From a virus (Duplodnaviria > Heunggongvirae > Uroviricota > Caudoviricetes), in IMG/VR virus record IMGVR_UViG_2850808358_000006, positions 1 to 7,984 of that record: a stretch of DNA of 7,984 bases; one strand, written 5' to 3'. The notes under the pieces were generated by a model. The model ran no database searches, was not told the DNA's origin, and saw only the letters and a list, made by a program, of their open reading frames with translations. Shown piece by piece: positions 1 through 7,984 of this stretch. Within the stretch, counting starts at the first letter, position 1; every line of letters begins with the position of its first letter. The translations under genes and the position numbers were made by a program.

Positions 1-57
1 GGTGCTGTCCTGTAAAGCAATGCGCCTGCGTTCCTCAAACTATGGCGCTGATAGTGG

Positions 58-363
58 CTATTCCTGCTCTTTGACCTTGCGTCGCTGGAGTTCTTCACGC
101 GCGACGGTGACGAGTTGCCCGATCTCCTCGGCGGCTTTGACTCCGATTTTTTCCACCTGCGCTAGGGCATCGAGCGAAGAAACCAGGAGGTTTTCTCCGC
201 TTCCTTCTGCCTGGCGGCGGGCGATTTCACCGCGCATGGCGGTTACTATGAATCCGGCGTTGCTTTCACCGTCCAGTTTTACGGATTCCATGCCTTCAAT
301 AACATCATGCGGGATCCGAGCTGTCAGTGATTGTGATTTTGCGTTTTTTGAACCTGTAGCCAT
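58..363 (-). CDS. ribbon-helix-helix (CopG/Arc-like) DNA-binding protein; candidate repressor divergent from the replication operon
   Basis: Minus-strand ORF (track 58..378, TTG start). I prefer the internal ATG at plus 363-361 because a GAGAGG Shine-Dalgarno lies 6-8 nt upstream (plus 369-377). The N-terminus SLTARIPHDVIEGMESVKLDGESNAGFIVTAMRGEIARR fits a beta-strand/helix/helix RHH pattern by eye. No database search run. Confidence 0.55.
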   Translation of the reverse strand: MATGSKNAKSQSLTARIPHDVIEGMESVKLDGESNAGFIVTAMRGEIARRQAEGSGENLLVSSLDALAQVEKIGVKAAEEIGQLVTVAREELQRRKVKEQE

Positions 364-379
364 CTGTAATCCTCTCAAT

Positions 380-465
380 GAAAGTGTAAGACAATATACA
401 CATAAAAAGTCTTACATAAAAGCATTGACATGTAAGCCACCTATAAATAAAGTTACTTACACCTT
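380..465. promoter_or_regulatory. divergent promoter/operator region: TTGACA (425-430), 17-bp spacer, TAAAGT (448-453), with two inverted-repeat operator candidates
   Basis: Inverted repeat 1: TGTAAGAC (385-392) and GTCTTACA (409-416), 16-bp spacer. Inverted repeat 2: TGTAAG (431-436) and CTTACA (456-461), bracketing the spacer and -10 of the rightward promoter. Lies between the divergent RHH gene and the plus-strand operon. Confidence 0.5.
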
Positions 466-559
466 GTTAATGCAAGGTGCAGAAACGACGAAACCCCGCA
501 CTGTAGGAGCAGTAACGGGGCTTCTAACCACCAACGATAGCAAGATTATCGAGGCAGCT

Positions 560-763
560 ATGAGAAATCATACCATACACCCGCAAGGGCGGGACTCGTA
601 CAACCTGAATAAATACATCTGGCGTTTTATCGCCCTGAGCACCGCACAACCGCGCGTGATTCACATCGTGGCCACCAGCGAACAGGAAGCACGCCAGCAA
701 TCCCCGGCTGGCTGCGTGATGGTATTCGCCGCCCGTATTCGTCAGGGGGTGTGCCATGCCTGA
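560..763 (+). CDS. hypothetical small protein (67 aa), first gene of the rightward operon
   Basis: ATG at 560 preceded by GAGG (551-554). Its stop TGA 761-763 overlaps the next start ATG 756 (ATGCCTGA), suggesting translational coupling. This is the C-terminal part of track ORF 2..763. No recognisable motif. Confidence 0.4.
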   Translation: MRNHTIHPQGRDSYNLNKYIWRFIALSTAQPRVIHIVATSEQEARQQSPAGCVMVFAARIRQGVCHA

Positions 764-1076
764 TATGTCAAATTACCAGTACCTGATTAATCCGCATTTT
801 AACTGTGAGCATGATATTGCTAAAAAGATTTATTCCGCTGCGGATGGGGCTACTGACAATATATCAATGGCTGTTGCGTCAATTGGTAGCCTGATGTGGC
901 ATGCGTCAGAAAATGAGGACTATGACGAAAAGGCCATGCGCATTGATATGGGTAATATCGGTTTGTTACTGGCAATGCTTGGACATTTTGATATTTCGTT
1001 ACGGTGCACCATTGAAAATGCCACAGATGCATTAAATGCTATAAAGAAAGCGAATACTGATTCAAATCGGGGATAA
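756..1076 (+). CDS. hypothetical protein (106 aa), AT-rich accessory-like gene
   Basis: Track ORF 756..1076. GGGGG run (745-749) 6 nt upstream of the ATG; overlaps the upstream stop. Visibly lower GC than flanking genes (by eye, not computed). No recognisable motif. Confidence 0.55.
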   Translation: MPDMSNYQYLINPHFNCEHDIAKKIYSAADGATDNISMAVASIGSLMWHASENEDYDEKAMRIDMGNIGLLLAMLGHFDISLRCTIENATDALNAIKKANTDSNRG

Positions 1077-1082
1077 ATAATC

Positions 1083-1382
1083 ATGAGAACGTATTTATCT
1101 GGCTTGACTGCCAGCGGTTATGCACACCCCCAAATTATCCCCGGCGCTATTTATCTGGATAAGAACGGTAACAGAGTAACGGTAAAAGAACTGATGTTTG
1201 ACCGTGTGTATTTTATCCGTGATGGCTATTCATTTCTTAGTTCGCTGAACGTGGAGATCTTTATTAGCAGATTCAGGCGGGAAATCCCGCTTTCCAGAAA
1301 TAACCATGTGTCATGTATGGATGTTGATAAAAAACTACAGGAACTAAAAAACATGATTGCCGCGTGGAGAGAGCAGAAATGA
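1083..1382 (+). CDS. hypothetical protein (99 aa), AT-rich accessory-like gene
   Basis: Track ORF 1083..1382. Stop TGA 1380-1382 overlaps the primase ATG 1379-1381 (ATGA), suggesting coupling. Lower GC by eye. No recognisable motif. Confidence 0.55.
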   Translation: MRTYLSGLTASGYAHPQIIPGAIYLDKNGNRVTVKELMFDRVYFIRDGYSFLSSLNVEIFISRFRREIPLSRNNHVSCMDVDKKLQELKNMIAAWREQK

Positions 1383-2500
1383 AAAAAGCGCCAAATTTAA
1401 AACACCAGCCGCGTGACAAAATGACGGAAGTCATCATTTTTGCGGGTAGTGATGCGTGGGCACATGCGAAACAGTGGCAGGAACAGGACGGGCGACTGGC
1501 TGGCGATAACGTGCCACCTGTCTGGCTTGGAGAGCAACAACTTGCCGAACTGGACAACCTGCAAATCGTACCGGACGGACGCTATCGCGTGCGTCTCTAT
1601 CAGGCGGGGTTATTGCGTCCGGGGCTTGTTAATACCATCGGGCAGAAACTGGCAGTGGCAGGTGTCAGGGATGCTGATTATTACCCTGAAGGAATGCACA
1701 GCCAGAAACGGGAGAACTGGCGCGAATATCTGGAACGTGAACGGGCAGAGCAGGCGGAAAAGAAAAAGGTAGTTGAACTGCCTGTAAAGAAAAAAGAGCC
1801 ATGCTATCAGGATGATGAATTAAAGCCCCGCGTTGAAAGTCGCGTCGATGGTGTTTTCTGGGTAACGCCCAAAGTGGATAAGCAGTCAGGCGAAATTATC
1901 CGGCCTGAGACGTGGTTATGTTCTCCGCTTGAACTACTGGGAACGGGGACGATCGGTAAAGAGCATTACCGCGTGATGCGCTGGAAAAAATTAGCAAACC
2001 ATGAAGTCATCACAATGGCGATCCCGTGTGGTGGCATTGGCGACCGTGACGGCTGGCGGTTGCTTAAAGATCACGGGCTGAACGTGACAACAAACGGCAA
2101 ATACAGGGCTATCCTGGCTGACTGGATGCAGTTAAGCGGAAGCCATGAGGAATGGCAGCTAAGCACAACAACGGGCTGGCATTTTGGCGCGTATATCATG
2201 CCGGACGGCTCAATCATTGGTGATTCTGAAAAACCGATCCTGTTTACCGGAAAAAGTGCCGCTGTTAATGGCTATTCGGTTGCGGGTACGGCGGAGGGCT
2301 GGCGCGACTGCGTGGCGCGGCTGGCTGGTGGCAATCCGTCCATGATGCTGGGTGTTGCCACGTCACTGGCAGCACCTTTGATTGGCCTTGTTGGTGCTGA
2401 CGGCTTCGGGTACATCTTTTCGAACAGTCATCGGCAGGGAAAACCACCACGCAGAACATCGCATCAAGTTTATGGGGAGAGCCGGACGCACAACGGCTGA
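1379..2500 (+). CDS. primase-helicase, N-terminal fragment (Toprim-like primase region); reading frame breaks near 2411-2416
   Basis: Track ORF 1364..2500 (GTG). I prefer ATG 1379, preceded by GGAGAGAG (1366-1373). Toprim-like segment TEVIIFAGSDAW ... RDADYY by eye. The frame-2 tail after about 2413 (IFSNSHRQGKPPRRTSHQVYGESRTHNG) looks like out-of-frame translation because the conserved helicase motifs continue in frame 1. Confidence 0.6.
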   Translation: MKKAPNLKHQPRDKMTEVIIFAGSDAWAHAKQWQEQDGRLAGDNVPPVWLGEQQLAELDNLQIVPDGRYRVRLYQAGLLRPGLVNTIGQKLAVAGVRDADYYPEGMHSQKRENWREYLERERAEQAEKKKVVELPVKKKEPCYQDDELKPRVESRVDGVFWVTPKVDKQSGEIIRPETWLCSPLELLGTGTIGKEHYRVMRWKKLANHEVITMAIPCGGIGDRDGWRLLKDHGLNVTTNGKYRAILADWMQLSGSHEEWQLSTTTGWHFGAYIMPDGSIIGDSEKPILFTGKSAAVNGYSVAGTAEGWRDCVARLAGGNPSMMLGVATSLAAPLIGLVGADGFGYIFSNSHRQGKPPRRTSHQVYGESRTHNG

Positions 2501-2601
2501 CCTGGTACGGCACAGCGTTAGGTATCGCTAACGAGGCAGAGGCGCACAACGACGGGCTGTTACCCCTGGATGAAATAGGCCAGGCCGGAAACGCGCGGGA
2601 G

Positions 2602-3501
2602 GTGTCCACGTCAGCCTATACGTTGTTTAACGGTTCCGGGAAATTACAGGGGGCGAAGGACGGCGGCAACCGGGAGATAAAACACTGGCGCACGGTGGCA
2701 ATCAGCACCGGAGAAATGGACGTTGAGACATTCCTCAAAACGGAGGGGATAAAAGTCAAAGCGGGGCAGCTTGTCCGCCTGCTTAACGTTCCGATGGAAA
2801 AAGCCACGCACTTTCACGAATACAGCACCGGAAAGGCGCACGCAGACGCGTTAAAGGATGCCTGGACAGAAAATCACGGGGCAGCGGGTCGTGAGTGGGT
2901 TAAATGGCTGGCAGGCCACCAGCAGGAGGCAAAGGATACGGTAAGGGAATGCCGCGAACGGTGGCGCAACCTGATACCGGAGAGCTACGGCGAGCAGGTC
3001 CACCGCGTGGGTGAGCGTTTCGCCATACTGGAGGCCGCGCTTGTGCTTTCCTGTCATGTAACTGGCTGGGCCGCGCAGGAATGCCGGGACGCAATACAGC
3101 ATAACTTTAATGCCTGGGTGAAGGAGTTCGGCACGGGTAACAGGGAATTTAAACAGATGGTTGAACAGGCTGAGGCGTTTTTGTCGTCGTTCGGGTTCAG
3201 TCGATACCTTCCTTACCCAAACAGTGATGAACGTGATTTACCGATTAAAGACCTTGCCGGATACAGAAAGGGGAGTATCAGAAATGAAGATGATGAGTTC
3301 CGTTTTTACACGTTTCCTCATGTGTTTGAGGGGGAGATCGCACAGGGATTTAACCCGTCCCACTTTGCCCGCGCGTTGAGTGCTGCCGGAATGCTGGAAG
3401 CGGGTAACGATCGCCGTTACAAGAAAAAGGCTCTCGGCAAAATTGGGGGGAAGCAGCATGTTTTTTACGTGCTGATGTTCCAGCCTGAGGCAGAAGATTA
3501 A
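2602..3501 (+). CDS. primase-helicase, C-terminal fragment (SF3/D5-like or DUF927-like helicase); homology extends upstream to about 2413 in the same frame
   Basis: Track ORF 2602..3501 (GTG). My manual frame-1 translation from 2413 gives HLFEQSSAGKTTTQNIASSLWGEPDAQRLTWYGTALGIANEAEAHNDGLLPLDEIGQAGNAREV, with Walker A (GKTT) at 2437-2448 and a Walker B-like LLPLDE at 2557-2574, then running into the track ORF. This means the two fragments are one gene split by a frameshift. Confidence 0.6.
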   Translation: MSTSAYTLFNGSGKLQGAKDGGNREIKHWRTVAISTGEMDVETFLKTEGIKVKAGQLVRLLNVPMEKATHFHEYSTGKAHADALKDAWTENHGAAGREWVKWLAGHQQEAKDTVRECRERWRNLIPESYGEQVHRVGERFAILEAALVLSCHVTGWAAQECRDAIQHNFNAWVKEFGTGNREFKQMVEQAEAFLSSFGFSRYLPYPNSDERDLPIKDLAGYRKGSIRNEDDEFRFYTFPHVFEGEIAQGFNPSHFARALSAAGMLEAGNDRRYKKKALGKIGGKQHVFYVLMFQPEAED

Positions 3502-3523
3502 CCCCCTGTGTGAGGTGAAAAGT

Positions 3524-3840
3524 TGCGGGTTATGCGGGTTACTCTGTGTATAAGTGCATTAACTGCATGAATAAAAAGGAAATCAATAACCCGCACGTAA
3601 CCCGCAAAACGGCAGTTATAACCCGCAAAAGTGCGATTATAACCCGCAGATGAATAACAGGAAGTGACAGCAAACAGCCACGCGTAACCCGCAGAAAAAA
3701 AACCGTTTGCGGGTTATTTTGAGCATTTTGCGGGTTACGCCACGGCTAAACAGTAAACAGTTAATTTTGTAATGTATTGATATTAAGGAATAAAAAATAC
3801 TTAGCAAGCGAAGATAACCCGCTAACCCGCATAACCCGCA
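3524..3840. repeat. iteron array (9-mer TAACCCGCA / TGCGGGTTA, about 12 copies) around an AT-rich core; putative origin of replication
   Basis: Reverse copies at 3524-3532, 3533-3541, 3708-3716, 3729-3737. Forward copies at 3587-3595, 3598-3606, 3619-3627, 3640-3648, 3685-3693, and three tandem copies across 3814-3840. AT-rich stretch about 3740-3812. Sits immediately 3' of the helicase gene, as in SaPI/PICI-type origins. Confidence 0.7.
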
Positions 3841-3879
3841 CTGTTTTGTATATATATACGAAAAATTGAGATCTGAACT

Positions 3880-4122
3880 ATGAAGGCAAACCGCAAACAA
3901 CCACACTACCGCGCTATTGACCTTACAGAGCACTGGCTGAGAGTGGCGATAAAAATCATCGACCGAAACACGGGGGAAGGATATGCAAAAGCACATCCCG
4001 AACTGATAAGCGCATTCATGACAACGGCAGCTGCAAACTTTGCCACGTTGACAGAACGGGAGATTGCCGAAGCGGAACAGGTAACAACCATCAACGTTAA
4101 AACCGGAGAGCAGACAGCATGA
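3880..4122 (+). CDS. hypothetical protein (80 aa)
   Basis: Track ORF 3880..4122. Stop TGA 4120-4122 overlaps the SSB ATG 4119 (ATGA). Weak Shine-Dalgarno. A TATATATA box (about 3849-3858) immediately follows the last iterons. Confidence 0.5.
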   Translation: MKANRKQPHYRAIDLTEHWLRVAIKIIDRNTGEGYAKAHPELISAFMTTAAANFATLTEREIAEAEQVTTINVKTGEQTA

Positions 4123-4541
4123 CAGCACAGATAGCGGCTTACGGGCGGCTGGTGGCTGACCCGCAGTTAAAGACCACCAGCAAGGGTACACAAATGACGA
4201 TGGCTAGTATGGCGGTACCCCTTCCGTGCAGCCAGGCAGATGACGGAACGGCGACGATGTGGTTATCCGTCCTGGCGTTTGGCAGACAGGCCGACGCACT
4301 GGCAAAACACCACAAAGGCGAACTGGTGAGCGTGGCGGGTAACATGCAGGTAAGCCAGTGGACAGGCCAGAACGGCGAAACGCGGCAGGGCTGGCAGGTT
4401 ATCGCAGACAGCGTAATCAGTGCGAGAACGGCGCGACCGGGCGGAAAAAAAGGCCAGCAGGGGCAGGCTACTGACGCACTGAACAGGGCAAAACAACAGG
4501 CGGGTAACGATGATCCGTACGGGGATAACATACCGTTTTAA
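4119..4541 (+). CDS. ssb: single-stranded DNA-binding protein (SSB family, short form, 140 aa)
   Basis: OB-fold pattern similar to E. coli SSB by eye: MWLSVLAFGRQADALAKHHKGELVSVAGNMQVSQWTGQNGETRQGWQV compared with [43 protein letters not shown]. Gly/Gln-rich linker and C-terminal tip DDPYGDNIPF, matching the conserved SSB protein-interaction tail that ends in IPF. Confidence 0.8.
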   Translation: MTAQIAAYGRLVADPQLKTTSKGTQMTMASMAVPLPCSQADDGTATMWLSVLAFGRQADALAKHHKGELVSVAGNMQVSQWTGQNGETRQGWQVIADSVISARTARPGGKKGQQGQATDALNRAKQQAGNDDPYGDNIPF

Positions 4542-4556
4542 ACAACGAGTAACAGA

Positions 4557-4579
4557 AGCCGGAGAAGTCCGGCTTTTTT
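4557..4579 (+). terminator. rho-independent terminator after ssb
   Basis: Stem AGCCGGA (4557-4563) and TCCGGCT (4568-4574), loop GAAG, followed by a T-run through 4579. Confidence 0.75.
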
Positions 4580-4585
4580 ATGCCC

Positions 4586-4626
4586 AAAAAAAGCCCGATA
4601 AGGTCAGAGGGTCTTATCGGGCTTTT
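4586..4626. terminator. second hairpin, bidirectional-terminator-like (A-run, 11-bp stem, T-run)
   Basis: A7 (4586-4592); stem AGCCCGATAAG (4592-4602) and CTTATCGGGCT (4613-4623); 10-nt loop; TTTT (4623-4626). Confidence 0.55.
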
Positions 4627-4707
4627 GCATATGAGGCTTTTATCTAACAGTATGGTAACTACTGTTGTCGGAGATAATTTCATAATTTGCAACACAACTC
4701 AACATTA

Positions 4708-4764
4708 TTGCGTAAAATGAAATCATGATTATAATCACAACTGGATGAACATCCAGTTGTGATT
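4708..4764 (+). promoter_or_regulatory. candidate promoter of the capsid operon (TTGCGT -35, perfect TATAAT -10 at 4730-4735) overlapped by a perfect 15-bp palindrome
   Basis: AATCACAACTGGATG (4733-4747), 2-bp centre, CATCCAGTTGTGATT (4750-4764), then TTTT. The palindrome begins inside the -10 hexamer, so it is either an operator for a dimeric regulator or an RNA hairpin. Confidence 0.45.
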
Positions 4765-4791
4765 TTTAACGTCAAAGAGGAATTTCCGACT

Positions 4792-4998
4792 ATGGCAGAA
4801 GAGAAAAAAGGCGGGGTGACAGTTTACATAAGCCCAGACATCGTGGAGGCGCTCAGGGAACGCCACCAGCAGAACGTAAAAGCAGGCATTGCGGCAGGAC
4901 TTGATCCGCTGGCGATGGTTGAGCCGTCAACAGGCTGGCAGGTACGCGCCTATTTACGCGCGGCGCTGGGCATGAATCAGACGCATGGAGGTGAATAA
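4792..4998 (+). CDS. hypothetical small protein (68 aa) preceding the major capsid gene
   Basis: Track ORF 4759..4998 (GTG). I prefer ATG 4792 with AAGAGG (4775-4780) upstream. Stop TAA 4996-4998 overlaps the capsid ATG 4998 (TAATG). Function unknown; a scaffold or regulatory role is speculation. Confidence 0.45.
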   Translation: MAEEKKGGVTVYISPDIVEALRERHQQNVKAGIAAGLDPLAMVEPSTGWQVRAYLRAALGMNQTHGGE

Positions 4999-6053
4999 TG
5001 GCAGGCAAAGCAACGGCACTTAACACTAACCAGCTTTTCGCGTACCTGAATCGCGGGGATATTGCGGAATTTAAATTCAGTCCGCTGTTTACCACGCTGT
5101 TTTTCCCGAACGTGGCGACATTCAACACCCAAAACATCATGCTGGACACCCTGGACATTGAAGAGGTTACGATGTCGGCGTTTTGTTCGCCTATGGTGGG
5201 TAGTCAGGTCCAGCGCGATAAAGGGTACGAAACCAGCACGATTAAACCTGGATACATGAAGCCGAAGCACGAAATCGATCCAACGAAAACCATCATGCGT
5301 ATGGCTGGAGAAGATCCGGCACAGCTTAATGACCCAACCTATCGCCGTATGCGCCTGATTACTGGCAACATGCGCCGCCAGATAAACGCCATTAAGGCAC
5401 GCGTGGAATGGCTGGCGGTGAATGCGATAACGACCGGAAAAAACATCATTGAGGGCGAAGGCATAGAACGCTATGAAATAGACTGGAAGATCCCAAGTAA
5501 AAATATCGCCAGACAGGGACCGGGTAAAAAGTGGTCAGAGGCAGATAAGGAAACACACGATCCAATCTATGACATCGAGCTTTATGCTGATCAGGCTGGT
5601 TGCCCCGCAAACGTCATGATTATGGGCGCTGAGGTATGGCGCACGTTACGCAGCTTTAAAAAATTCCGTGAGCTGTACGATCTTTCCCGTGGTTCAGAAT
5701 CCTCCGCCGAACTGGCCTGTAAAAACCTGGGCGAAGTGGTGAGCTTTAAAGGCTATCTGGGCGATATTGCCCTTATCGTCTATTCCGGCAAATACGCCGA
5801 CAGCGACGGCACAGAAAAATATTTCCTTGAACCTGATTTGCTGGTCCTGGGCAACACCAACAATAAAGGGCTGGTGGCCTATGGTGCGATTATGGATCAG
5901 GACGCAGTAAGAACGGGGGCAACGCAAAACATGTACTACCCGAAAAACTGGATTGAGGACGGCGATCCGGCGATTGAGTACGTGCAGACGCACAGCGCAC
6001 CGCAGCCGGTTCCGGCAGATATTCGCAAATTTGTTACTGTCAAAATTGCTTAA
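4998..6053 (+). CDS. major capsid protein, phage lambda gpE family (351 aa)
   Basis: Colinear with lambda gpE by eye along the whole length. Examples (window vs lambda): FKFSPLFTTLFFPN vs FKFDPLFLRLFFRE; KPGYMKPKHEIDPT vs TPGYVKPKHEVNPQ; DPTYRRMRLITGNMRR vs DPAYRRRRIIMQNMRD; FKGYLGDIALIVYSGKY vs YKGMYGDVAIVVYSGQY; VLGNTNNKGLVAYGAIMDQDA vs VLGNTQARGLRTYGCIQDADA; YYPKNWIEDGDPAIEY vs RYPKNWVTTGDPAREF. GGAGGTGA Shine-Dalgarno at 4987-4994. Confidence 0.9.
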   Translation: MAGKATALNTNQLFAYLNRGDIAEFKFSPLFTTLFFPNVATFNTQNIMLDTLDIEEVTMSAFCSPMVGSQVQRDKGYETSTIKPGYMKPKHEIDPTKTIMRMAGEDPAQLNDPTYRRMRLITGNMRRQINAIKARVEWLAVNAITTGKNIIEGEGIERYEIDWKIPSKNIARQGPGKKWSEADKETHDPIYDIELYADQAGCPANVMIMGAEVWRTLRSFKKFRELYDLSRGSESSAELACKNLGEVVSFKGYLGDIALIVYSGKYADSDGTEKYFLEPDLLVLGNTNNKGLVAYGAIMDQDAVRTGATQNMYYPKNWIEDGDPAIEYVQTHSAPQPVPADIRKFVTVKIA

Positions 6054-6064
6054 CGGGGGATTCT

Positions 6065-6400
6065 ATGGACACTCCATACATTGAGTTATTTGCAGGCAGC
6101 CAGCAGGTATCCACGACGCTGGTACATTTTGCCGCTGATGCTGGCGTTATTCAGGAATTTACCCCGCTGATGCTGGCGGACAATGGCGAGTTTAAGGCGT
6201 GGGATGGTCAGGAATCTGGCAAGGCTGTTTATCTGACCTCGTACCCCGTGGACACGTCGACGCAGAAATCAGCACAGTGTTACAAGACGGGGATATTTAA
6301 TATCGCCGCCGTTAACTGGCCTGAGAGCGTCGACACCGACGCGAAAAAATGCGCCGCCTTTGCGGGTTCTGGTGTATCTGTTCAGCCGCTGGCGCGATAA
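6065..6400 (+). CDS. head decoration protein, phage lambda gpD family (111 aa)
   Basis: By-eye alignment with lambda gpD: TPLMLADNGEFKAWDG vs TPLMLDTSSRKLVAWDG; YKTGIFNIAAVNWPESVDTDAKKCAAFAGSGVSV vs [40 protein letters not shown] Shine-Dalgarno at 6055-6060. Confidence 0.85.
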   Translation: MDTPYIELFAGSQQVSTTLVHFAADAGVIQEFTPLMLADNGEFKAWDGQESGKAVYLTSYPVDTSTQKSAQCYKTGIFNIAAVNWPESVDTDAKKCAAFAGSGVSVQPLAR

Positions 6401-6413
6401 GCAGGGGGGAACG

Positions 6414-6827
6414 ATGGCAACGAATGAAAGTATCATGGCGCTACCGCTGGCGAGTAAATTTAAAGCTGAAGCGCGGGCAATGGCTGACAGATGTCTATCA
6501 ACCTACGAAGCTATATATCAACTTAACAAACTGGAAGAACAGGACAAGCCGCGCGCTGATGCGATTATGTCGCTTCATGAATCTGACGACTATCAGCCGC
6601 TGTTACGTGCAATGGCAAACGTGCCTTGTATTGATGTTGATACGGCTAAAAACATCCTGAACATGACCATAGAGCAGGAACGCCAGAAGGTTGCACCAGA
6701 GCTTACCGCAGCCTTTGAAAACTTTATGGACATGCACAGCCCACAAGCCGTATCAGCTGGCATGGCATACGATGGCAGAAACCCGGGCGATGACGGCGAC
6801 ATTGATCGCATACTGAAAACCATCTGA
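6414..6827 (+). CDS. hypothetical protein (137 aa), last gene of the capsid operon
   Basis: Track ORF 6360..6827 trimmed to ATG 6414, which follows a GGGGGGA run (6404-6410). Followed by a terminator. No recognisable motif; not obviously lambda FI or FII. Confidence 0.6.
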   Translation: MATNESIMALPLASKFKAEARAMADRCLSTYEAIYQLNKLEEQDKPRADAIMSLHESDDYQPLLRAMANVPCIDVDTAKNILNMTIEQERQKVAPELTAAFENFMDMHSPQAVSAGMAYDGRNPGDDGDIDRILKTI

Positions 6828-6833
6828 GACAAG

Positions 6834-6855
6834 GCCGGAGAAATCCGGCTTTTTT
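6834..6855 (+). terminator. rho-independent terminator after the capsid operon
   Basis: Stem GCCGGA (6834-6839) and TCCGGC (6844-6849), loop GAAA, T-run 6850-6855. Nearly identical in sequence to the terminator at 4557-4579. Confidence 0.75.
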
Positions 6856-6976
6856 GCGGGTCCTTTCCGGCATATGGACCTGTTACGGGGCGGCGACCTC
6901 GCGGTTTTTCGCTATTTATGACGTTTTTCCGTGAAGGTGACACCACCACCACTTGATTAACATTTAACCAGTTAAT
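6856..6976 (+). other. lambda-type cos site (cosQ-like 6858-6870, cosN cohesive-end core GGGCGGCGACCT 6888-6899, short cosB-like region)
   Basis: GGGTCCTTTCCGG ... GTTACGGGGCGGCGACCTCGCGGTTTTTCGCTATTTATGA matches the joined lambda right end and left end (GGGTCCTTTCCGGTGATCCGACAGGTTACG + GGGCGGCGACCTCGCGGGTTTTCGCTATTTATGAAAATTTTCCGG), recalled from memory. Downstream CGTTTTTCCGTG (6922-6933) resembles the lambda R3 element CGTTTCCGTTCT. Followed by CACCACCACC and the palindrome TTAACCAGTTAA (6964-6975), then the Nu1-like gene. Confidence 0.8.
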
Positions 6977-6988
6977 TGAGGTAACATT

Positions 6989-7423
6989 ATGATTGATAAG
7001 ACTTGTTTTGTAAGTCAGCAGGAAATAGCTGAACATTTCAAGGTAAACAGAACCACTATTCGCGCATGGACCAAACAGGGGATGCCGTATCTTAATGCGG
7101 ATCGCGGAAAGTCCGGCGGTTATCACATCGGGCATACATTGCTTTGGTCTTCAGGTAAAAGCCATCTTGAGGCCATTGGATATCACGTAGAAACCAGTGC
7201 GCTGGAAAAAATTATGGTTGCCAGGCTGCTTTCATCTGAGCGTGACGAGTACTCCAGTGAAGAAACAGAACATCGATTTGATGAAGGTTTGCAGATTTAC
7301 GGCTATTCACCGGAAGATGTGAGCAAAGCACGAAATAAAATGGCTGGCTTTCTGGCTGGGTGGCGTCATGCAGTAAGCGTTCGCCGTGCCAGCATGGAGC
7401 AATCAGCCGATACCGAACAGTAA
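6989..7423 (+). CDS. Nu1-like small terminase subunit homologue (winged-HTH DNA-binding domain), 144 aa; possibly a packaging-redirection (Rpp-like) factor
   Basis: N-terminus QQEIAEHFKVNRTTIRAWTKQGMPYL matches lambda Nu1 KKQLADIFGASIRTIQNWQEQGMPVL by eye. About 35 aa shorter than Nu1. No large-terminase gene follows. TGAGGT Shine-Dalgarno at 6977-6982. Lies directly downstream of the cos site. Confidence 0.75.
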   Translation: MIDKTCFVSQQEIAEHFKVNRTTIRAWTKQGMPYLNADRGKSGGYHIGHTLLWSSGKSHLEAIGYHVETSALEKIMVARLLSSERDEYSSEETEHRFDEGLQIYGYSPEDVSKARNKMAGFLAGWRHAVSVRRASMEQSADTEQ

Positions 7424-7479
7424 AGCCGATAACTTGTTAATCACTCGCAGCAATGCGTGTGATTTGTGCACACTTTCGG

Positions 7480-7670
7480 TTAACTGGTTCGATGTCCGGT
7501 TTTAGTGTCTGTTTTTTGCGCATGTCCGGTTCATGGAAAGCATGTTTTTGTATTTTTCATATAGTTAACTTGAAGAGAAGCCGGACATGGCTCCTGGAAA
7601 ATTTTCATAAATAGCGAAAACCCGCGAGGTCGCCGCCCCGTAACGGGCCATAATTCCAGGAAGGACCCGA
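7480..7670 (-). other. second cos-like site in inverted orientation (cosN core on the minus strand at 7627-7638, cosQ-like at 7656-7668, cosB-like region with three ATGTCCGG-type repeats)
   Basis: The reverse complement of 7594-7640 reads CGGGGCGGCGACCTCGCGGGTTTTCGCTATTTATGAAAATTTTCCAG, near-identical to the lambda cosN left flank. Repeats ATGTCCGG at 7492-7499 and 7522-7529 and the inverted CCGGACAT at 7581-7588 occupy positions like lambda R1/R2/R3, with an AT-rich stretch between them. TTAACTGGTT (7480-7489) mirrors the palindrome in the first cos site. Confidence 0.65.
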
Positions 7671-7702
7671 CGACACCAGACTATCAGAACGATGGGGGCA
7701 CA

Positions 7703-7984
7703 ATGACAGAAGCCGAAATACTGGGATTAATCCGTCGCGTTACCGGAATCAGCCAGCAGGCTGACGAACAGACCACGCAGCCGGACAGCGTGACAGCCGA
7801 AAACTATGCGCGTGTTGTGGCTGAGGTGATGCGCCGTGATGGTATTGAGCTTAACGGCGAGGATATGCGCAACATACGAACCAGAGTTCTCGGGTTGTTG
7901 TCATACCGTCGCCGTTCTCAACAACGGAGGGAGAGCGCGAAAAATACTTACCAGTGGAAGAAGCCGGAACGGCTGCGGCGGTAA
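7703..7984 (+). CDS. hypothetical protein (93 aa)
   Basis: Track ORF 7703..7984. GGGGG run at 7694-7698 upstream of the ATG; stop TAA at the window end. Basic C-terminus (RRRSQQRRESAKNTYQWKKPERLRR). No recognisable motif. Confidence 0.5.
   Translation: MTEAEILGLIRRVTGISQQADEQTTQPDSVTAENYARVVAEVMRRDGIELNGEDMRNIRTRVLGLLSYRRRSQQRRESAKNTYQWKKPERLRR

Follow-up and report, generated by a model that had tools for sequence, protein, structure and literature searches.

A putative LexA operator over the start of the capsid-gene promoter in an EcCICFT073-type phage-inducible chromosomal island

In this study, we report a putative LexA operator in a 7,984-bp stretch of viral DNA (IMG/VR record IMGVR_UViG_2850808358_000006, positions 1 to 7,984; hereafter the window), which covers the right-hand two thirds of an Escherichia coli phage-inducible chromosomal island (PICI) of the EcCICFT073 type. 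The biology of the EcCICFT073 island has been published (PMC6092414, PMC6739421). The late genes of the island, among them capsid homologues, lie behind a promoter whose -10 hexamer runs into a perfect 32-bp dyad. The centre of this dyad (4739-4758) is probably a LexA operator placed over the transcription start of the promoter. LexA binding and SOS inducibility, like the start site itself, are predicted here from the sequence of the site, its score, its position and its pattern of conservation.

The dyad at the capsid-gene promoter and its LexA box

The features of the promoter region, in window positions, are:

4708-4713, + strand: -35-like hexamer TTGCGT, with 3/6 matches to the consensus
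4708-4722: second dyad, TTGCA-N5-TGCAA, covering the -35 and the first half of the spacer; consensus in relatives ATTGCAcaaaaTGCAAT
4730-4735, + strand: consensus -10 hexamer TATAAT, 16 bp after the -35
4733-4764: 32-bp dyad with arms of 15 nucleotides at 4733-4747 (AATCACAACTGGATG) and 4750-4764 (CATCCAGTTGTGATT), 100% complementary, and a spacer of 2 nucleotides
4739-4758: putative LexA box AACTGGATGAACATCCAGTT, with its CTG-N10-CAG core CTGGATGAACATCCAG at 4741-4756
4763-4767, + strand: T run, T5 here and T6-T7 in most relatives, of which two T lie inside the right arm
4775-4782: ribosome-binding site of orf68, AAGAGGAA

The original prediction described a perfect 32-bp dyad that starts inside the TATAAT box upstream of the capsid operon, and judged it unlikely to have arisen by chance. 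Inspection of the sequence bore this out. The arms are fully complementary, the left arm begins at 4733, within TATAAT, and the ribosome-binding site, orf68 (4792-4998) and the major capsid gene (4998-6053) follow downstream. The half-site had no second copy in the window with up to 3 mismatches allowed, and all close relatives examined carried the dyad at this position. Chance is excluded as its origin. The TTTT said to follow the dyad is present as the T run, slightly overstated in that 2 of its 5 T belong to the right arm. TTGCGT-16-TATAAT was not listed by the promoter scan because its -35 has only 3/6 matches. The suggestion that the dyad is an operator also stood in part: it overlaps the -10 and the predicted start of a conserved promoter, but the evidence points to host LexA and not to a helper or island regulator.

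Candidate LexA boxes were scored by the Berg-von Hippel heterology index (HI), using a matrix of symmetrised counts from the 18 E. coli LexA boxes listed in Table 4 of PMC3009722; as the matrix was built for this work, its values do not exactly match those of Lewis et al. 1994. The 20-mer AACTGGATGAACATCCAGTT had an HI of 7.3, within the range of 2.0-17.0 obtained for the 18 published boxes by leave-one-out scoring, while the second-best 20-mer in the window scored 14.7. None of 200 shuffles of the window reached 7.3 (best shuffle 9.0). A further control was run because the LexA motif is itself palindromic: among 200,000 random perfect 15+2+15 palindromes, 33 reached an HI of 7.35. The half-sites are CTGG/CCAG and not the commoner CTGT/ACAG, which weighs against LexA; the ruvA and cho boxes share them, however, and scored 8.6 (ruvA, CGCTGGATATCTATCCAGCA) and 8.0 (cho) by leave-one-out.

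The E. coli LexA operator has the consensus TACTG(TA)5CAGTA (PMC6590174). In genes under tight LexA control, the SOS box often overlaps the start site (PMC8072944), and a box over -10/+1 is typical of LexA-repressed genes. The box in the window begins 3 nucleotides after the conserved TATAAT and lies 34 nucleotides before the start codon, and its core covers about -3 to +17 relative to the predicted start site; both the promoter and the start site are predictions.

A search of helper phages for the same dyad, which the original prediction had proposed as a check, was carried out by blastn of 4300-5300 and of 4726-4772 against 50,697 GenBank phage records and gave no meaningful match; there was thus no sign of an operator shared between helper and island. 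Outside PICIs, the 16-bp core palindrome was found in IMG/VR in unrelated contexts only, without a promoter or ribosome-binding site, and several recurring sets of these read in frame as L-D-E-H-P. In the genome contigs, the 17-nucleotide promoter pattern gave chance matches only and a capsid search gave no match. The search of Rfam at the dyad had no match at E <= 1, its sub-threshold matches falling on the upstream terminators only, and the tRNA search found none. Two other candidates were discarded. A CRP site was rejected since the elements of TCACA...TGTGA are wrongly ordered and spaced and are not conserved, most relatives having CATAAC, and a conserved mini open reading frame in the leader (GTG/ATG ATT TTT...) was rejected since its frame and stop vary between lineages.

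Conservation of the box among related islands

Region 4300-5300 was matched in 1,428 of 5,426 complete E. coli genomes, CFT073 among them. Homologous promoters collected from E. coli genomes and IMG/VR contigs comprised 168 loci with 63 distinct 200-nucleotide upstream sequences, and the 31 distinct indel-free versions of the 52-nucleotide core region are the variants to which the conservation counts below refer. The box was located at -53/-54 from the ATG in 166 of the 168 loci, with HI values of 6.1-10.2. CTG and CAG were invariant in all 31 variants, the whole invariant pattern being CTGGAT...CAT.CAG. Perfect arms, by comparison, were found in only 7 variants; another 12 had one mismatch and the remaining 12 had 2-4, so the 15-bp perfection is peculiar to this window and a minority of its relatives.

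Changes within the 16-bp core of close relatives were limited to the last base of the left arm (G9A), the spacer (AA to TA or TT, A10T) and C15A, which turns CCAG into the consensus ACAG. Each of them keeps or improves the LexA score, and G9A and C15A break hairpin pairs that are never compensated. The most variable positions of the whole region were 4738-4740, midway along the left arm, and changes there were mostly not matched in the right arm. The promoter itself was well kept: TATAAT was present in 29 of the 31 variants and in the Salmonella, L394, L396 and L397 lineages, and its distance to the ribosome-binding site was fixed in relatives. Also conserved were the ATTGC of the -35 (in 57 variants and across genera), an upstream block TTTCATAATTTGCAAC, the T run (invariant over five positions in the variants) and the ribosome-binding site.

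Other lineages were reached via capsid and orf68 homologues, and boxes were found at several of their promoters: GACTGGATGAAAATCCAGTA in two Salmonella-type islands (HI 7.45), CACTGTTTTTTCATACAGTT in a Lelliottia island (HI 6.85), a near-consensus CACTGTATATAAATTCAGTT in L396 (HI 7.7), GACTGGATGCACATACAGTT in L397 (HI 8.86) and AACTGGATGTTTGTCCAGTT in L394 (HI 9.07), whose small-ORF (open reading frame) protein is named Pluralibacter gergoviae in NCBI and whose box is shifted by 12 bp and stands without outer arms. The next-best site in each of these loci was never below HI 13.9. Counting beyond the 31 variants, CTG and CAG were also invariant in six further lineages. The centres observed between CTG and CAG, close relatives included, were GATGAACATC, GATAAACATC, GATGAAAATC, GATGTTTGTC, GATGCACATA, TATATAAATT and TTTTTTCATA. 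The outer arms are gone in L394, L397 and Lelliottia, and CTG-N10-CAG is retained. Turnover of the centre and flanks with CTG-N10-CAG kept at the promoter is the pattern that would be expected of a LexA operator; it would not be expected of a specific RNA stem or of the site of a sequence-specific island protein.

Several observations weigh against a LexA operator. The box is absent from the E. coli lineage L381/L382 (65% capsid identity), in which the CAG is ATG, from Edwardsiella (L383) and from lineages with 52-55% identity (L386-L393). It is also absent from the capsid-forming island L005, which shares the promoter only up to TATAAT. Because some related islands have no box, it must be regarded as optional and not universal among them. 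The complementarity of the outer arms goes beyond what LexA needs, with two-sided changes at 3 pairs (7 cells), and is kept in Salmonella. Two published results on EcCICFT073 point the same way: induction of alpA depends on the helper and not on SOS (PMC6092414), and the capsid and decoration genes are dispensable for interference.

Island L005 (E. coli JNEC-KY176), the capsid-forming PICI, has a complete module of head and terminase genes. Its late-promoter region (~6975-7050; TTTCATAATCTGCAAC...TTATAAT) is common to the family of the window, with divergence right after the -10, and a cosN-like sequence, GGGGCGGCGGGGTCGCGG, lies upstream.

Outside the window, LexA-like 20-mers (HI 8-12.5, e.g. 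TACTGGATAAGCACACAGAT and TACTGGTTTTTTATACATTA) recurred at fixed positions between int and alpA in four related islands (L001, 3329-3348 and 3440-3459; L002, 942-961; L003, 1261-1280 and 1372-1391; L004, 1618-1637 and 1729-1748), the better-scoring one having CAT/CAC in place of CAG. These may instead be recombination or AlpA sites, because alpA expression has been reported not to be SOS-dependent (PMC6092414).

Alternative explanations for the symmetry

The original prediction also offered an RNA reading, in which the dyad acts as a terminator or attenuator that requires antitermination. Transcripts entering from upstream, by read-through of the two ssb terminators or from a weak promoter such as TTCATA-18-CATTAT at ~4679-4708, would fold the 15-bp stem and stop at the U run, leaving antitermination and the embedded promoter as the only ways into the late operon. 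The full dyad is indeed a very stable RNA: z scores of -5.6 in the window, -4.95 in CFT073, -2.65 in O157 and -3.2 in Salmonella were obtained, and the window dyad with its downstream leader folds at about -26 kcal/mol. The O157 dyad was flagged as terminator-like on its inner 8-bp stem, the full stem there being followed by 5 T of a run of 7, and a promoter-like site, TTCATA-18-TATCAT, was flagged upstream of it. Over the 31 variants, 94% of cells were paired, 3 pairs had changed on both sides and a left-arm A-to-G change gave G-U at two pairs (7 and 5 sequences); these pairing controls are lenient because the structure was derived from one aligned sequence and the sequences are closely related. 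The invariance of the T run over five positions fits this reading too. Against it, pair 17-38 is mismatched in 12 of the 31 variants, the core changes G26A and C32A are never compensated, and Lelliottia and L394 keep the box without the extended stem. Conversely, the T run is kept in lineages without the hairpin, namely L382 (z = -0.8) and Edwardsiella (z = +0.6), and for this reason probably belongs to the leader and is not the tail of a terminator. The region 110-180 bp upstream already holds two strong terminators. Transcription from TATAAT would begin at ~4741-4743, inside the left arm, and the RNA would lack most of that arm; the fold from 4742 had a z score of only -0.47. An intrinsic terminator was taken to have a G+C-rich stem of 5-14 bp, a loop of 3-8 nucleotides and a U tract directly after the stem. 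The dyad gives a stem of 14-15 bp with 40% G+C and an A/U-rich base, a loop of 2-4 nucleotides and, in the window, only 3 T after the stem (5 with the arm's own TT), and the scan did not call it a terminator. We do not favour the terminator or attenuator, which appears very unlikely as the main role of the dyad. Most of the hairpin potential follows from three features of the site: the operator is palindromic, the -10 fixes its left flank, and its right flank GTT[A/G]TGATTTT is conserved as sequence even without a partner. The hairpin may exert a minor insulating effect on read-through RNA.

A smaller RNA element can also be drawn. Hairpins at the 5' end, such as that of the ompA leader, protect mRNA from 5'-end-dependent decay, and a transcript starting at ~4741-4743 would begin with the stem-loop CUGGAU-GAAC-AUCCAG. 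The invariant part of the dyad begins almost at the expected start, 6-8 nucleotides after TATAAT, and UGGAU/AUCCA is the first folding element of the RNA from 4742. The fold from that position is no better than shuffles, however; the G26A and C32A variants weaken the short stem, the A/T-rich centres of Lelliottia and L396 would give only marginal stems, and the CTG-N10-CAG spacing is conserved where the stem is not. A protective role of this kind is highly improbable.

The dyad could further be the operator of another protein, acting alone or beside LexA, either from the island (e.g. orf68 as an autoregulator) or from a helper phage, with the whole 32-bp dyad or the TGATT/AATCA repeats (4727-4731, 4733-4737, 4760-4764) as its target. 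In E. coli and Salmonella, conservation of the outer arms AATCA/TGATT exceeds the needs of LexA, and the -10 lies within a 14-bp palindrome, ATGATTATAATCA(t), at 4725-4738, which is perfect in the consensus of the relatives; it ends as ATGATTATAATCA(c) in the window and with t in most relatives. The second dyad, TTGCA-N5-TGCAA, is conserved over the -35, and the strand-helix-helix layout of the orf68 model would be possible for a ribbon-helix-helix protein as well. What stands against such an operator is that positions 4738-4740 of the left arm are the most variable of the region, that the outer arms were lost in L394, L397 and Lelliottia with CTG-N10-CAG kept, that the right-arm sequence GTTGTGATTTT persists in Edwardsiella without its left partner and that no similar dyad was found in the GenBank phages searched. 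We consider this explanation distinctly unlikely. The AlphaFold2 model of orf68 (predicted local distance difference test score, pLDDT, 80) has a beta-hairpin and two helices and matched no fold in the PDB: the best Foldseek match had E = 2, and single-chain Arc came up only at E = 9.7. With no Pfam domain either, and a PHROG family without known function, orf68 was given low weight as a ribbon-helix-helix autoregulator.

The extra symmetry of the promoter, in the TTGCA dyad and the -10 palindrome, nonetheless suggests that further factors probably act on it. The second dyad is degenerate in the window (TTGCG TAAAA TGAAA), TTGCGT being its left half, but is plainly visible in the majority of E. 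coli relatives and in Salmonella, as well as in L382, which has no box; Edwardsiella L383 has two copies. It is likely to be a regulator binding site. Three copies of the pentamer TGATT/AATCA surround the LexA box, and the TGAT-N4-ATCA core around the -10 resembles FNR-type half-sites. One could also picture the dyad as a composite switch with two inputs, in which the LexA box is nested in an operator made of AATCA/TGATT and the -10 palindrome and the TTGCA dyad is a further site. Such an AND gate would require both damage and a helper or island factor, convergent with the arrangement in Staphylococcus aureus pathogenicity islands (SaPIs) but built unlike it, and the hairpin would in addition shield the operon from early transcription. 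We regard this elaboration as unlikely, and a LexA operator at the centre of the dyad as the probable explanation.

Island context, proposed control and known systems

The further features of the window are:

1364-2500 and 2602-3501: DUF927 replication gene, in two pieces
3524-3840: iteron origin
4119-4541: ssb
4558-4579, + strand: intrinsic terminator 1, 3' of ssb, GCCGGA-GAAG-TCCGGC then T6, read from the sequence
4589-4626: intrinsic terminator 2, with a perfect 14-bp stem AAAAGCCCGATAAG / CTTATCGGGCTTTT, conserved in relatives
4792-4998, + strand: orf68, first gene of the operon, 68 codons, annotated in relatives (phrog_3255)
4998-6053, + strand: major capsid protein homologue (lambda gpE family, PF03864)
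6065-6400, + strand: head decoration protein homologue (lambda gpD family, PF02924)
6414-6827, + strand: protein of 137 amino acids (phrog_1999), resembling the C-terminal part of head-maturation proteases (phrog_53)
6834-6855, + strand: intrinsic terminator closing the four-gene operon, GCCGGA-GAAA-TCCGGC then T6, read from the sequence
6888-6899, + strand: cosN, with the exact lambda cosN core GGGCGGCGACCT
6989-7423: rpp, beyond the terminator at 6834-6855 and outside the capsid operon
7627-7638, - strand: second, inverted cosN, again with the exact core GGGCGGCGACCT
3' of the second cosN: last ORF of the window

Annotated relatives have the gene order integrase, AlpA, Icd-like, DUF4222, primase, ssb and a small hypothetical gene, followed by the genes for the major capsid, head decoration and connector-like proteins and the Nu1-like 'terminase small subunit' (Rpp). 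L001-L003 are islands next to phoQ, and in them the neighbourhood is bounded by phoQ on one side and by roxA, or the int end of the locus, on the other. The DUF927-type replication gene, which encodes ~700 amino acids in relatives such as L389 and L394, is present here as two ORFs in different frames with a 100-nucleotide gap. This suggests a frameshift or a disrupted gene, and this copy of the island may therefore be unable to replicate. Dense direct and inverted TAACCCGCA iterons surround an A/T-rich stretch 3' of the replication gene, where the origin of replication of the island is expected.

The product of 6414-6827 aligns to positions 493-567 of the 583 in the phrog_53 profile and is annotated as 'head-tail connector' or 'hypothetical' in relatives. 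We take this C-terminal part to be the scaffold (Nu3-like) part, and the island may thus encode a scaffold fragment beside its capsid and decoration homologues. The terminator at 6834-6855 was not listed by the terminator scan, and the motif of terminator 1 was flagged as terminator-like in L003 as well. The same cassette, GCCGGAG-AA-TCCGGC with T6, is reused at module boundaries (4558-4579 and 6834-6855 in the window; 6523-6540 and 6887-6904 in L003), as if it were a portable junction element. The two inverted lambda cosN cores flanking rpp agree with the two cos sites described for EcCICFT073; both lie far from the dyad, which was for this reason rejected as a cos site.

The following scheme of control is proposed. 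In an undamaged cell, a LexA dimer occupying about -3 to +17 would prevent the open complex from forming or the polymerase from escaping the promoter. DNA damage, which also induces lambdoid helper prophages, would free the promoter through RecA-stimulated self-cleavage of LexA, and the sigma-70 promoter TTGCGT-16-TATAAT would then drive a morphogenesis operon (4792-6827) of orf68, capsid, decoration and scaffold-like genes. Terminators on both sides would wall off these four genes: terminators 1 and 2 isolate the late operon from early transcription, and with both in place TTGCGT-16-TATAAT would be its only transcription route. The outer arm parts AATCA/TGATT would be dispensable for LexA function, the left one being largely the -10 hexamer and the right one leader sequence that is conserved even without its partner. 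Deletion of the capsid or decoration homologue of EcCICFT073 has been reported not to restore plaque formation by lambda, and neither gene accounts for interference because the plaques were not restored. The position of rpp and the cos sites outside the operon agrees with capsid and decoration not being needed for interference with infecting lambda.

The closest likeness is to the boxes of E. coli ruvAB (CGCTGGATATCTATCCAGCA) and cho (CACTGGATAGATAACCAGCA), which like that of the window are 16-bp CTG-N10-CAG sites with an A/T-rich centre next to a promoter. The window core is identical to the ruvA box at 12 of 16 bases, and CTGGAT-N4-ATCCAG is common to both. Unlike them, the putative box of the window lies on a mobile satellite, before homologues of virion proteins and not repair genes, and is nested in a longer palindrome that takes in part of the -10.

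Several temperate elements have LexA-repressed switch genes, such as tum of coliphage 186, the antirepressors of the Gifsy phages and the rstA promoter of CTXphi. In these, as would be the case in the window, the element puts a host SOS box on its own promoter and responds to damage without a cleavable repressor of its own. Their boxes control induction (antirepressors, replication), whereas the window box stands on structural-type genes, in an island type whose alpA is reported to be SOS-independent. The attenuator idea is modelled on the lambdoid pR', where a promoter-proximal terminator is overcome by Q antitermination. Both regions have a strong -10 and a stable hairpin with a T run within ~40 nucleotides, before head genes. 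The window hairpin differs in starting inside the -10, so that transcription from that promoter would not cover it completely. The searches showed no similarity in sequence to the late regions of phages, and the hairpin is not conserved where the box is.

LexA boxes of Gram-positive bacteria have the form GAAC-N4-GTTC, so that a SaPI would carry a different motif. Packaging operon I of SaPIs is described as LexA-controlled (Ubeda et al. 2007, Mol Microbiol 65:41, as cited in PMC6092414). There, a late satellite operon with its own promoter is under the host SOS repressor, apart from the helper-dependent switch for excision and replication. The late operon of the window likewise has a separate promoter with a putative LexA box, two terminators upstream and the terminator at 6834-6855 at its end. 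The two systems differ in host phylum, LexA motif, promoters and operon contents: the window operon holds gpE, gpD and scaffold-like homologues, with the packaging-redirection gene rpp outside it behind a terminator. The resemblance, experimental for SaPI and predicted for the window, would be convergence and not homology.

Gram-negative PICIs have been described as activated by AlpA, which the helper induces, in a manner independent of SOS (PMC6092414). In the Gram-negative PICI literature that was searched, LexA appears only where SaPI work is cited and the control of late genes is not addressed; no report of LexA control of a late operon was found there. LexA control, known for staphylococcal satellites, is thus apparently unreported for Gram-negative ones. 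The prediction made here is well supported by sequence and is relevant to research on satellites and on the SOS regulon, and the presence or loss of the box could mark sub-classes of island lineages. If it is true, expression of the capsid, decoration and scaffold-like genes of these islands would be a direct response to DNA damage, like that of SaPI operon I, by convergence in another phylum. The puzzling, apparently dispensable capsid homologues would then be made on SOS induction even without a helper, which bears on their role.

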